Positions 18,301 to 24,300 of a stretch of DNA of 64,000 nucleotides are shown here, in pieces. Position 1 is the first letter of the stretch, and each line of letters opens with the position of its first letter. The stretch lies in NCBI RefSeq assembly GCF_050320075.1, contig NZ_CP190018.1. The stretch is one strand, 5' to 3'. A program made the position numbers. This DNA is from Escherichia coli. Lineage in GTDB: Bacteria > Pseudomonadota > Gammaproteobacteria > Enterobacterales > Enterobacteriaceae.

Positions 18301-21300
18301 AGCTGGTGCTTTACCCCCCAATTCCAGGCACACTTTGGTGATGTTTTTCGCCGCAGTCGCCATGATCTTTTCACCTGCAGAGACGCTGCCTGTCATACTG
18401 ACCATTGCGACCTTTGGGTTACCCGCCAGTTCTTGCCCAACGGTTTCACCACGCCCCAGAACAAGGTTAAACACGCCGCGCGGAAGGCCTATTTCATCGA
18501 CGATTTTGGCGAATGCAATCGCATTGTTTGGCGTAAATTCACTGGGTTTAATGACAATGGTATTACCAGTCAAAAGAGCGGGAGCCATTTTGCGGGCAAT
18601 GAGGAAGAACGGGAAGTTCCACGGCAGAATGCCGGTAGTCACACCAAGCGCACGTTTAAACAGAAGAATATTTTCTCCTGGACGATCGCTTTGAATAATC
18701 TCGCCCTCGTAACGCCGTGCCCACTCCGCCATGTAATCGATATAGTCCGCAGTAAAAGCCACTTCGACTTCAGCCAGCTGCTGGATCTTGCCCCCTTCTT
18801 CAACAATCAGCGCACTGATTTCACTGGCGCGTTCGCGGATCCCGACGGAGATTTTGCGCAACCAACTGGCGCGTTCAATAGCAGGCAACGCTTCCCATTC
18901 TGGTTGTGCACGTTCTGCTGCATCGATTGCCTTACGGGCATCCTCGGCCTGACCATCGGGAATGCGGGAAATGACAGCCTCTGTAGCAGGGTTTACCACA
19001 TCAATCCATGCGTCTCCACGCCAGGTAACAAACTGTCCATCAATATACATAGGATGTTGAACGGGTACTGACATGAGCGGCTCCTGTGATTTATATGTTT
19101 GTTTTTGGTAAATACATTGTTAATTAACATCAATCATCAGAGAGACGGCATCATGAAAGGACAATTCTGTGAAGGGCTTCATAAAAACAAGTGTAAAAGG
19201 AATAAGAGGCAGAAATAAAAGGCAGGAGTTATGCCCGTTTGCAAACAAGTGGTTCACAAACGGGCAATTTTTAACGTAACGAGCGACTTTCCATCGCCTC
19301 GATGAGCACCGCATCGTGTTTCAGCGTTTGCCATGCATGGATGACTTCTGCCGGAAAATCAACGTGAACGATAAAATCTCGCCCGCGGGGACCGTAGCCA
19401 TCGCTATCATCGCGTAAACGCGGCAGCTCGCCAGTGAGTAGTGAGAGATAACGCTCAACCGGCCATAATCCTTGCAACGGATTAACAAAGATTACACTGT
19501 CTGCGTTGTTTCCTAGCTGAGGAACGAATCCGGGATAACTTAACCAGCGAGGTGCATCTGGATTGTCCCCGGTCATACGGCGGAACGTCGCCATCGTGCG
19601 CCGCTGCATGGTGGGGTCCTGAACAACGATAGCCGTATGAACTCGTTCTACGGCCTGATTCAATAGCGCGATGCTAAAGCGTGCGTTTTCACCGCAGTTT
19701 GTTGACTGGTCTTCAATCCAGATTTTTTCATGCGGAATATGCCAGAACTGATGAGCGATATCCGCCAGGATGGTGGCTTCTGCTCTGCCAGTGGTGCGGA
19801 TAGTGTTGTAGTGCGGATGCTGTGCGATAGCGCTATACAAAAAAGTTGTCGAGTGACCGATACCACCACTAATCAGTAGAGGAATTTGCTGATCGCGGGC
19901 AATCTTACATGCCGCATCGATAGTCGGCATAACCGCATTGCCTGCAAGGATCACGCAATCGGCCTGATACGGCATCTCACCGGAGAAATCATCCTGCGCC
20001 AGCCACTGTCCGATAACATTTATGGCATCTATAGTTGCCGTCGAAAGCGTCGGAAACGGGGTAATGTTCATGGTTCCTCCTTATCGTTCCCTTAAGAATA
20101 CTGCGTGAGATAATAATGAGAAGCGGAGCACTCTGAAAGGAAGATGATGCTTTTTCTACCTCGCCATCGCGAACCAGACACTGGTTTTAGTCATACTGTA
20201 TTTGCGGAGAAACTGTTGATAAAACATCAATAACATCATTTGACGTGGCAATGACATAATGCTCGATCACATTATTTTTATAAATTTCACAACTTTGCAT
20301 AGTAAACCATGCAAAGTAGGCGGAATTCACTACTCTATAGATCCCCGTTTGGTTAATACCGTGAATTCCTGACATTCCTAACAAATCACCTTCGTCAGTA
20401 ACACGAAATGAATGTATCCAGTCAAATGATAACTTAACTTCTGACTTGATCGCCGGACATATGAGGGTAAGTTCAAGCCTGGCATTTTTATAGCTTAAAT
20501 CTGATAGTTCGGCATTTTTAAAAGACAATGAAGTCGGAGTGATATTTATAAAACATTCATCCATGTTAATACCCCTTCATATATGAGACTGCTCTCGATA
20601 GACGACACATTAACCTTCTGCAAAAACGGTGCGAGTCTGTTTACGTACCATGTATAATCGATGGACATTACTGTGATTTGAAATTACCTTGTCCAGTCAT
20701 CAACCATTTTTTTCAGGGGGAACATCTGCAATACATTCATTAATGCGAAATATAATTCCCCCTGTGGCACCCATATTCTAATCTTCTCATCCCCTAAAAT
20801 GAAAAATTGCAATTGACGTTTGAAACCTAATGTTTTATCTTCAGGTAATTCAGCTTGTATTTTTTTATTGATATCATCAAGGTAGATGTGATGACAATAC
20901 TCATCAAACATACTCATTACTTCCAGACCGTTTACAGATGTCCATCTTTGTTCACTTTCCCAATAAACAAGAACCGGTTTGCGGCAGGTATATCTGCCTA
21001 AAAAGCGCTGAATGTGTTCTTCCTGATTCTCGTAAAATATTGCCTCTGCATTCGAGATTTGCCGACGCATTCGCCAGCGGATTTTTTCTTCATAAAAAGA
21101 CAATTTGTCGCATTTGGTATTACTCAAATTCATTGTCAACAACTCGCATGGTTTTAAATATAAAATTTAAAAAACCGCCAAACAAATGAAGTGAAATTTC
21201 ATACTTCTTTGCCTTATAAACAATTACCGCATCTTTAATATTACCTGCATTTTGGTTATCTATAAGTTCAGCAATATCCATAACCTGCGATAAATGTTCC

Positions 21301-24300
21301 ACTCCCGTAAACTCGAACCTTTTTCGTTCCCTTCCGGCTGTAAATTCATCAACATAAAGTTCTGCCGTCAATATAAAATTATACTCGGTGTGGTGACATT
21401 CCATTCTGGTTTCTACTAAAACACCATCATGCCAGATAATATTGTCTAAATTTTTCATACTATTAATCCAATCCATTACTTTCTGATAAAATTTCCTCTG
21501 GAAGTTTTTCATAGAAAGAGATTAAAGCCTGACCGACGCAATCAAGCTCTATTATTCGCTCATAATACGATCTCATTAAAATATCATGCTTACTCATTGC
21601 AATACGTCCTGTTTACCATGGGCAGAGTATGAATGTAACTTATGTAAAATAGTACCGCCCTTGCTATTTTTCAGAATTCATAAAGGCTGAATTTACAATC
21701 CAAGTGCAACAAAAAAAGAAGTACTCATCAACTAGAATATAATTTTGTTTCCACACAAAAACCATTTCCAAATGATGAGTACTTCCTACCGACATCTTAC
21801 AATAAACGAGCGAGAAAAGATAATGATTTTACTCGCACAGGGCAAAAAACAAGCAGAAATTGCCAAAGCACTGGGACGTAGCTCCAGCACCATTTCTCGC
21901 GAGCTGAAACGACACGCTCTAGAAAGCTACAGTGCAACGAACGCACAAAACAGCTATTTGAAGCATCGTCAAAATAGCAAAGCACAGCGCAAATTAGAGC
22001 AGCCTGAATATTTCAATTTGGTGCAAGAAAAGTTTCTGACAGAAAACTGGTCGCCCGAACAAATCAGCGCACGATTAAAATTGGAAAAATCTGAATTATC
22101 CATTAGTTATTCAACCATTTATCGTGGTATTTATTCAGGGTTGTTTGATATAGGCGAACGCAAAGCCAGTCGCAAACTGCGCCACAAAGGCAAAACACGG
22201 CATACAAAAAATCATCATGAAAAACGTGGCAAAATTCAGATATCCAACCATTTGAACGACCGTCCCATTTCGGCGCAAAATCGCAGTCGCTTTGGACATT
22301 GGGAAGCCGATACCGTACTGGGTAAAGCGGGTGGAGCTTGTTTGCTGACGCTGACGGAACGCAAAAGTCGTTTTGAGTTGGTGAAGAAAATTCCTGCCAA
22401 AAAAGCCGAAGCAGTCCAAAAAGCCATGATTGAATTGCTGGATTCACATATATTGCGGTCAATTACGCCAGACCGTGGTAAAGAATTTGCCCAACATCGT
22501 TTGGTAACAGAAGCACTGGGTGTAGAATTTTACTTCCCCGAGCCGCATCAACCGTGGACACGGGGAACGAATGAAAATACAAATGGGTTACTTCGTGAAT
22601 ACTTTCCGAAGCACCAAGACATCAATCAGTGGAGCGAAGTTGATATTCAACAGGTGATCAATAAACTGAATTTACGACCACGTAAATGTTTAGGTTGGAA
22701 AACACCTTATGAAGTTTACTTCAAAAAATCGTTGCACTTGGTTTGACAATTCAAGATACAAATTATAAATACTCTCAAGTGTATATTCAGTATGGGATTG
22801 CGCAATGATTGCCTAATAAAATTTCTGAAATATTTCTGTATCGCATAATTTTTTATATCAGATAAATTGTACTGGATTTCTTAAAAAATTGCAGTATAAT
22901 TGCCGCAATTATCCCACCGTTTATTTTTTGAGTAGTTTCTCATGATGCAGCATACTTCTGTGTGGTACCGACGCTCGGTCAGTCCGTTTGTTCTTGTGGC
23001 GAGTGTTGCCGTTTTCTTGACCGCGACCGCCAATCTTACCTTTTTTGATAAAATCAGCCAAACCTATCCCATCGCGGACAATCTCGGCTTTGTGCTGACG
23101 ATCGCTGTCGTGCTCTTTGGCGCGATGCTACTGATCACCACGCTGTTATCATCGTATCGCTATGTGCTAAAGCCTGTGTTGATTTTGCTATTAATCATGG
23201 GCGCGGTGACCAGTTATTTTACTGACACTTATGGCACGGTCTATGATACGACCATGCTCCAAAATGCCCTACAGACCGACCAAGCCGAGACCAAGGATCT
23301 ATTAAACGCAGCGTTTATCATGCGTATCATTGGTTTGGGTGTGCTACCAAGTTTGCTTGTGGCTTTTGTTAAGGTGGATTATCCGACTTGGGGCAAGGGT
23401 TTGATGCGCCGATTGGGCTTGATCGTGGCAAGTCTTGCGCTGATTTTACTGCCTGTGGTGGCGTTCAGCAGTCATTATGCCAGTTTCTTTCGCGTGCATA
23501 AGCCGCTGCGTAGCTATGTCAATCCGATCATGCCAATCTACTCGGTGGGTAAGCTTGCCAGTATTGAGTATAAAAAAGCCAGTGCGCCAAAAGATACCAT
23601 TTATCACGCCAAAGACGCGGTACAAGCAACCAAGCCTGATATGCGTAAGCCACGCCTAGTGGTGTTCGTCGTCGGTGAGACGGCACGCGCCGATCATGTC
23701 AGCTTCAATGGCTATGAGCGCGATACTTTCCCACAGCTTGCCAAGATCGATGGCGTGACCAATTTTAGCAATGTCACATCGTGCGGCACATCGACGGCGT
23801 ATTCTGTGCCGTGTATGTTCAGCTATCTGGGCGCGGATGAGTATGATGTCGATACCGCCAAATACCAAGAAAATGTGCTGGATACGCTGGATCGCTTGGG
23901 CGTAAGTATCTTGTGGCGTGATAATAATTCGGACTCAAAAGGCGTGATGGATAAGCTGCCAAAAGCGCAATTTGCCGATTATAAATCCGCGACCAACAAC
24001 GCCATCTGCAACACCAATCCTTATAACGAATGCCGCGATGTCGGTATGCTCGTTGGCTTAGATGACTTTGTCGCTGCCAATAACGGCAAAGATATGCTGA
24101 TCATGCTGCACCAAATGGGCAATCACGGGCCTGCGTATTTTAAGCGATATGATGAAAAGTTTGCCAAATTCACGCCAGTGTGTGAAGGTAATGAGCTTGC
24201 CAAGTGCGAACATCAGTCCTTGATCAATGCTTATGACAATGCCTTGCTTGCCACCGATGATTTCATCGCTCAAAGTATCCAGTGGCTGCAGACGCACAGC

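Follow-up and report, generated by a model that had tools for sequence, protein, structure and literature searches.

Heterogeneous polyimmunity loci are tandem arrays of unrelated, closely spaced immunity genes on one strand, without toxin genes between them and with a content that varies from strain to strain (Zhang et al. 2012, PMC3482391). Their proposed role is pre-emptive protection against the toxins of non-kin bacteria (PMC3482391). Here, we describe an AT-rich islet between hrpA and ydcF in the chromosome of Escherichia coli, which is probably a locus of this kind, that is, a set of unrelated orphan immunity genes without a toxin gene. It occupies positions 20145-21685 of a 64,000-nucleotide stretch of contig NZ_CP190018.1 (assembly GCF_050320075.1), which we refer to as the window. 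The islet carries three open reading frames (ORFs), ORF-A, ORF-B, and ORF-C, and the remnant of a fourth gene, ORF0.

Like the described polyimmunity loci, the islet consists of same-strand genes separated by short spacers, with no toxin gene or cassette between them, and its content differs between strains and species. The assignment to immunity families differs from gene to gene: ORF-B and ORF-C are placed by homologs that lie next to toxin genes, ORF-A by the fold of a medium-confidence structure model, while ORF0 is unplaced. Unlike several polyimmunity loci, though not all of them, the islet has no adjacent recombinase gene; its neighbours are hrpA and ydcF, and the ISApl1 transposase found beside it belongs to a recently inserted transposon, Tn6330. 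The islet is also small (3 genes here, 4 in O157:H7), and it has stayed at one chromosomal site through vertical inheritance across the genus. Finally, Pfam has no model for two of its families or for the toxin domains that partner them.

The orphan cdiA-CT/cdiI and rhs-CT/rhsI modules that follow CDI and Rhs loci (Poole et al. 2011, PMC3150448) are comparable, as they too retain immunity genes for which there is no working cognate toxin. In the cdi modules, the cdiI gene is preceded by a cdiA-CT fragment, which usually begins at a VENN-encoding sequence. The families of ORF-B and ORF-C are represented within orphan arrays of this type in Cedecea and also in a Salmonella-type Rhs locus. In contrast to these modules, the islet has no cdiBAI or rhs genes nearby, no fragments encoding VENN or Rhs-core sequences, and no remnants of toxin domains. 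The copies in the window differ from CdiI and RhsI in having no toxin gene upstream; the position behind CdiA-CT or Rhs-CT holds for their homologs in other genera. A third comparison is with the AID clusters of Bacteroidales (10.1101/471110), which are presented as arrays of orphan immunity genes thought to guard against contact-dependent gut toxins of other species. The source describes these clusters as acquired, whereas the islet diverges in step with ydcF, is far smaller, and is found in Enterobacteriaceae.

The islet is bounded by the upstream region of ydcF (19271-20071, minus strand) and by the insertion point of Tn6330 and the terminator of hrpA (26494-30396, minus strand); as a whole, it is not assigned a strand. 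Its GC content is 0.33-0.37 (over 20200-21800), compared to ~0.48-0.53 in ydcF, aldA, and hrpA. A preliminary description of this DNA had reported such an AT-rich segment with three minus-strand ORFs, and all three were recovered: ORF-C at 20187-20564 (125 aa), ORF-B at 20684-21133 (149 aa), and ORF-A at 21120-21458 (112 aa). For ORF-A, this length is counted from a conserved MKN start codon (21458), which is also the start chosen by the Prokaryotic Genome Annotation Pipeline (PGAP). An in-frame ATG further upstream, at 21512, gives a 130-aa form (21120-21512), which exists only because of a deletion of ~0.28 kb in the window allele. ORF-B and ORF-C are separated by 119 nt, while the stop of ORF-A and the start of ORF-B overlap by 14 nt (21120-21133, minus strand). 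This overlap, ATGAATTTGAGTAA, can be read directly from the sequence, as the preliminary description had done, and it is also kept in the O157 allele, which is consistent with translational coupling of the two genes. All genes, including the ORF0 remnant, are encoded on the minus strand, and the PGAP gene calls for the islet ORFs are consistent across genomes.

The clearest link to toxin systems was found for ORF-C. A word-indexed search returned homologs of 125-129 aa with 43-48% identity in Erwinia, Pantoea, Duffyella, Citrobacter, Cedecea, Ewingella, and Edaphovirga, in a family with at least 50 representatives. Two motifs are invariant among these homologs, FDW.HSFRVTDEGDLL and HY...T..DV.DVLS; the family motifs can also be written as FDWIHSFRVTDEGDLL and HY.I.T..DVIDVLS. 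Homologs begin within ~50 nt of the stop codon of a CdiA gene (in Duffyella, Edaphovirga, Providencia, and Erwinia, where the CdiA-CT is frameshifted) or of an Rhs gene (in Rosenbergiella). In Duffyella, the distance is 7 nt, and the CdiA protein contains Fil_haemagg_2 and PT-VENN domains; the cases in the other genera came from a genome-wide scan. A homolog in Lelliottia follows a 55-aa toxin remnant, one in a metagenome-assembled genome of Oligoflexia lies next to a related toxin tail, and those in Cedecea and in the Salmonella-type Rhs locus lie within arrays of orphan toxin/immunity modules. The toxins encoded ahead of the ORF-C homologs all end in one domain of ~90 aa (...GRSKLFER.GG..ANKEF...GRVGKL.DGRTIIVR..S.DGRPTLEIQ.GKNRIKFRY), for which no sequence match was found in Pfam, NCBIfam, or the PDB. 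Matches of a CdiA-CT to the PDB entries 5J43, 5J5V, and 8ZYC were set aside, as they are confined to the linker upstream of the toxin domain. The toxin-adjacent position of its homologs marks ORF-C as an orphan member of the immunity family that pairs with this ~90-aa domain. In Duffyella gerundensis, a SymE-type toxin gene (locus coordinates 8434-8766) is located directly after the cdiI gene of the ORF-C family, in convergent orientation. In two loci of this species, the CdiA-CT/immunity pair is surrounded by conjugation genes (TraG, TraC, and others), and is therefore probably carried on an integrative or plasmid element.

A similar picture emerged for ORF-B. The word-indexed search recovered copies in Escherichia only, while an exhaustive phmmer search yielded 79 cluster representatives of the family at E<=1e-3, most of them ~140 aa long and sharing 22-60% identity. 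The family is conserved along its full length, with the motifs Y..RI.W, PVL.FW...WT, and IWAP.G..FAL.NIL.MFPL. A homolog with 42% identity overlaps the 3' end of a gene for a full-length Rhs protein of 1500 aa, downstream of Hcp and VgrG genes. Two more homologs begin 8-9 nt after genes whose products, one of them with Rhs repeats, end in the same toxin domain: their last ~100 residues share 29-41% identity with the C-terminus of the 1500-aa Rhs. This domain, which ends in ...SGF.AN.KL..FL..R...G..F.GG.....DF.I.F., showed no NCBIfam match and has no Pfam family on record. In addition, one member of the ORF-B family is fused to a domain that matches Pfam CdiI_3, a family of contact-dependent growth inhibition (CDI) immunity proteins. 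A structure model of ORF-B itself was unusable, with a predicted local distance difference test (pLDDT) score of 39. Based on the positions of its homologs, ORF-B is most likely an orphan member of an immunity family that pairs with a ~100-aa C-terminal toxin domain of Rhs proteins. Immunity genes of the ORF-B and ORF-C families were furthermore found ~3 kb apart in one orphan Rhs array of a Salmonella-type type VI secretion system (T6SS), and the two families therefore travel together elsewhere as well. Thus, members of the ORF-B and ORF-C families sit where immunity genes are expected, each family behind a particular toxin domain, as a survey of the neighbourhoods of their homologs, called for in the preliminary description, brought to light.

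ORF-A could be placed tentatively by its predicted fold. Its homologs were found in Escherichia and Shigella only, at 64% identity or more, together with one metagenomic relative at 32% identity, which is encoded on a 1.4-kb contig between small unknown ORFs. No toxin-linked relative was found by a word-indexed protein search, a scan of viral contigs, or a metagenome scan, and hidden Markov models (HMMs) built for ORF-A and ORF0 matched none of the ORFs in the retrieved toxin loci. The AlphaFold2 (AF2) model of ORF-A, of medium confidence (pLDDT 63.5, predicted template modelling score 0.58), consists of four strands, a helix, and three strands. Its fold matches are proteins annotated as Imm50, one of which shares 27% identity with ORF-A, and PIM7, the immunity protein of the DNase toxin PT7 (PDB 8OWU). 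The likeness to Imm50 and PIM7 is one of fold only; as the Pfam Imm50 HMM does not match ORF-A, we call it Imm50-like in fold rather than a member of the family. The model thus suggests that ORF-A is an immunity protein with a mostly-beta, Imm50-like or PIM7-like fold. Known partners of Imm50 are Tox-HHH and Ntox24, and Rhs HNH-EHHH toxins in Salmonella (PMC3482391, PMC10469887).

The fourth gene of the locus is truncated in the window. A small ORF of 43/44 codons at 21463-21597 contains in its first 35 codons (21493-21597, minus strand) the 5' part of ORF0, with 83% identity to residues 1-35 by tblastn. The intact ORF0 protein has 141 aa and is encoded by ECs_2016 in O157:H7 Sakai. Alignment to the O157 allele shows a net loss of ~0.28 kb from the window allele at ORF0, and PGAP labels the remnant an incomplete pseudogene in the identical, transposon-free strain CFSAN061763.

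The preliminary description had read ORF-A and ORF-B as tandem paralogs with a shared CHH-containing motif, and the small ORF as an ORF-B-like N-terminus that would make ORF-A a frameshifted copy. Neither reading survived: BLASTP aligned ORF-A and ORF-B with an E-value of 2.5, i.e., without meaningful similarity, and hhalign gave a probability of 0.2%. The CHH motif is not kept in the ORF-B family, as E. albertii has EHLHYIY at this place. The small ORF is the stump of an unrelated gene, intact in O157:H7, which showed no similarity to the ORF-B family in a profile comparison. Profile-profile comparisons among the ORF-A, ORF-B, and ORF-C families, and of ORF0 with the ORF-B family, all returned probabilities below 1%. 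Judged by these sequence comparisons, ORF0, ORF-A, ORF-B, and ORF-C are four mutually unrelated families. Searches with all four proteins against Pfam, NCBIfam, PADLOC, and PHROGs gave nothing significant (for PADLOC-DB, no family match at E<=1), and sequence and profile searches of the PDB returned no meaningful match, whether for the proteins, for the ORF-B and ORF-C family profiles, or for the profile of the ORF-C partner toxin. Our literature search found no paper mentioning ECs2016-2019 or DUF2262.

The islet genes are real and under purifying selection. In pairwise Nei-Gojobori estimates between Escherichia alleles, the ratio of nonsynonymous to synonymous substitution rates (dN/dS) was 0.18-0.60 for ORF-A, 0.22-0.53 for ORF-B, 0.09-0.34 for ORF-C, and 0.31 for ORF0, so that the comparative coding signal sought in the preliminary description is present in every gene (0.09-0.60). 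At long divergence (synonymous divergence, dS, of ~0.6-1.1), dN/dS of ORF-A, ORF-B, and ORF-C was 0.12-0.45, which implies purifying selection throughout the history of the genus. The highest values, up to 0.5-0.6, came from the closest allele comparisons. That the ORFs are chance reading frames in an AT-rich spacer is accordingly refuted by these ratios, all well under 1, together with the consistent PGAP calls and the full-length ORF-B and ORF-C homolog families across many genera; the missing curated-family matches of the four proteins and the pLDDT of 39 for ORF-B might have spoken for chance frames, a reading that keeps next to no credibility.

Among complete E. coli genomes, the islet was present at >=80% coverage in 584 of 5426 (~11%); the remaining ~89% match only ~70 nt adjoining ydcF. 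In agreement with the preliminary description, it is thus not core sequence in most E. coli and is missing from K-12, where the short gap mentioned there corresponds to a hrpA-ydcF spacer of only 271 bp in K-12-type genomes. There are two main alleles. The O157:H7 type, carried by Sakai (ECs_2016-2019) and EDL933, is ~92% identical to the window type and has four intact genes, annotated as hypothetical proteins, while the window type has three genes and the ORF0 stump. The MOD1 clade has four genes, as in O157. The islet or parts of it were also found at the hrpA-ydcF junction of E. albertii, E. whittamii, a cryptic-clade strain, and another Escherichia genome, each with a different gene content: in E. 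albertii, a DUF7021/DUF2262 gene is accompanied by ORF-A and ORF-B with frameshifts and by an intact ORF-C; in E. whittamii, ORF-B is truncated; and the other Escherichia genome has ORF-A and a partial ORF-C. A protein record from E. fergusonii shows 90% identity to ORF-C. Intact islet reading frames occur in O157:H7, the window lineage, cryptic clades, and E. fergusonii. Throughout the genus, the hrpA-ydcF junction accommodates a changing set of small genes. The DUF7021/DUF2262 protein of E. albertii is 285 aa long, and its gene (locus coordinates 4146-5003) takes the hrpA-adjacent position that ORF0 fills in O157. In some assemblies, deletions that removed ORF-A and ORF-B have joined the N-terminus of ORF0 in frame to the C-terminus of ORF-C.

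Recent horizontal acquisition, as implied by the preliminary description, was ruled out by comparing the islet genes to ydcF in the same pairs of genomes. The dS was 1.06 for ORF-A against 1.09 for ydcF, and 0.87 for ORF-C against 1.16; further pairs gave 0.15-0.20 against 0.21, and 0.06-0.23 against 0.10. As the dS of the islet matches that of the flanking ydcF across Escherichia species, the islet must date back to the ancestor of the genus, with later loss in most E. coli. On the ydcF side, high-identity homology to K-12-type genomes stops ~70-73 nt from the ydcF start, and diverged homology extends to about nt 129. Indeed, the 271-bp K-12 spacer aligns to the ydcF-proximal 129 nt of the islet (20072-20200) with 78% identity, into the last codons of ORF-C. 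Since the K-12 spacer still aligns with the end of the islet, the absence of the islet is most simply a loss, and this alignment suggests that K-12 bears the scar of a deletion and not a site that had never been occupied. The locus has therefore been at the hrpA-ydcF site since before the Escherichia species diverged, and it varies by deletion. The most economical history is that of an ancestral, vertically inherited locus that deletions wore down and that most E. coli have lost. Its low GC content may point to an older foreign origin.

No toxin gene was detected alongside the islet. It contains no other ORF longer than 83 aa, and HMMs of both partner toxin domains matched neither the 64-kb window nor any of the Escherichia islet loci. 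VENN, filamentous-haemagglutinin repeats, and toxin-domain sequences are absent from the islet and its flanks, and the upstream ORFs of the Escherichia loci lack a VENN-like motif. When both toxin/immunity modules were searched against the 5426 E. coli genomes with sensitive blastn settings, only the region of the ORF-C motif was matched, in 612 genomes; as this search was done at the DNA level, distant toxin homologs could be missed.

Taken as a polyimmunity locus, the islet would be a short operon whose genes all point the same way and encode structurally unrelated, cytoplasmic immunity proteins from polymorphic-toxin systems (CDI by type V secretion, T5SS, and Rhs by T6SS). Each protein would bind and block, stoichiometrically and in the cytoplasm, one family of C-terminal toxin domains injected by a neighbour on contact. 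ORF-C would block the ~90-aa domain, ORF-B the ~100-aa domain, and ORF-A an Imm50-type partner, probably a nuclease of the HNH/HHH class. In this way, a carrier would withstand attacks from other Enterobacterales and be spared the cost of a toxin system. We infer that the E. coli copies are expressed and still neutralize such toxins, as we do the activities of the partner toxins themselves.

Several observations, besides the DNA-level reach of the toxin search, weigh against this interpretation. The toxin-linked homologs are only 42-48% identical to the E. coli copies and immunity is usually highly specific, so that cross-protection is not assured. Three other sampled relatives of ORF-B are stand-alone genes in ordinary neighbourhoods. 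The assignment of ORF-A rests on a model with a pLDDT of 63.5, and a Pfam-A scan found no Imm50 HMM match to it even at E<=10, while ORF0 has no significant match in Pfam, NCBIfam, PADLOC, PHROG, or the PDB. A scan of the islet for promoters and terminators found sites no more numerous than in shuffled sequence. Finally, the locus is decaying, with ORF0 deleted here, frameshifts in E. albertii, ORF0::ORF-C fusions, and no islet in ~89% of E. coli.

This decay is also what recommends the main rival, in which the islet is the relic of an ancestral CDI or Rhs toxin/immunity array whose toxins were deleted long ago, leaving immunity genes that are neutral passengers and are lost piecemeal. The scar-like K-12 spacer, the truncated ORF0 of the window, the truncated ORF-B of E. 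whittamii, and the dN/dS of up to 0.5-0.6 in the closest comparisons would all fit such a relic, as would the frameshifted ORF-A and ORF-B of E. albertii. The long-term dN/dS argues against it, however: at dS ~0.6-1.1, the values of 0.12-0.45 indicate selection over the whole history of the genus. Frames are still intact in O157:H7, the window lineage, cryptic clades, and E. fergusonii, and no toxin remnant could be detected in any Escherichia allele. We therefore regard a neutral relic as unlikely.

It is more improbable still that the genes form a small module for toxin-antitoxin activity, abortive infection, or another kind of anti-phage defence; a small defence or toxin-antitoxin-like module was another suggestion of the preliminary description. 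Small, co-directional, AT-rich, and variably present genes, two of them apparently translationally coupled, would suit such a module, and ORF-C has a full-length though weak PHROG match (phrog_15075, E 0.0096). This is a family of unknown function, and we set the match aside, along with a SieB-like match of ORF0 (E 0.066). None of the four proteins matched a family in PADLOC, Pfam, or NCBIfam; tblastn with ORF0, ORF-A, and ORF-B against 72,556 plasmids found no match, nor did the ORF-A family match any viral contig. The relatives of the islet proteins keep company with CdiA and Rhs toxins rather than with phage or toxin-antitoxin genes, and the locus is inherited vertically rather than on mobile elements. 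Of the ideas offered at the outset, it is thus orphan immunity that gained support, from the ORF-B and ORF-C relatives behind CdiA and Rhs toxins and from the Imm50- and PIM7-like model of ORF-A.

The kind of locus has already been described, and the islet extends the known picture rather than changing it. What is specific here are the two immunity families with their partner domains, the fixed position that is as old as the genus, and the presence of the locus in O157:H7 as ECs_2016-2019. Under the polyimmunity reading, four genes that are labelled only "hypothetical protein" across hundreds of E. coli genomes, among them the O157:H7 reference strains Sakai (ECs_2016-2019) and EDL933, acquire a function that can be tested, and the reading brings with it two pairs of toxin domain and immunity protein for which no Pfam, NCBIfam, or PDB entry was found. 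A broader proposal, which we put forward tentatively and hold to be somewhat short of an even chance, is that ORF-B, ORF-C, and their partner domains represent two toxin/immunity families spread across Enterobacterales and beyond, against both of which Escherichia has kept a toxin-less immunity operon at one fixed site since before the genus diversified. The operon would serve as vertically inherited cross-species protection, surviving in O157:H7 and phylogroup-D-type lineages. If protective, the islet would be an enterobacterial counterpart of the orphan immunity arrays of Bacteroidales, inherited vertically rather than acquired. It would then bear on the resistance of E. coli lineages to contact-dependent killing by other Enterobacterales, and could influence which of them persist beside neighbours armed with CDI or T6SS.

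The transposon next to the islet is a separate matter. Tn6330 (21686-26434) is a complete ISApl1-mcr-1.1-pap2-ISApl1 composite transposon of 4749 bp, 100% identical to plasmid copies, and the strain therefore has a chromosomal colistin-resistance gene (mcr-1.1). Its insertion produced a 2-bp target duplication (AG) and placed it between the hrpA terminator and the islet, directly against the edge of the islet, where the preliminary description had located it. In CFSAN061763, which lacks the transposon, the islet is colinear as far as 21685 and 100% identical to that of the window; the insertion is a recent event unrelated to the islet.

The gene order in the window is trg, hokB, cybB (15873-16439), gapC, aldA (17635-19074), ydcF, the islet, the ISApl1 transposon, and hrpA. 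The spacer between trg and hokB (13390-15233) is ~1.4 kb longer than in the otherwise identical CFSAN061763 and contains two same-strand ORFs (13765-14286 and 14529-15134) that resemble the two halves of an IS3-family transposase; the extra DNA is probably an additional insertion sequence. The gapC gene (16592-17593) has an intact frame of 333 aa here and in the other islet-carrying strains examined, while the annotation of the K-12-type genome ER2683 lists it as a pseudogene, disrupted by a frameshift and an internal stop. On the other side of hrpA, an uninterrupted minus-strand ORF of 2163 aa (32384-38875) corresponds to a gene annotated in the identical strain as encoding a BigA/YdbA N-terminal beta-barrel domain protein.

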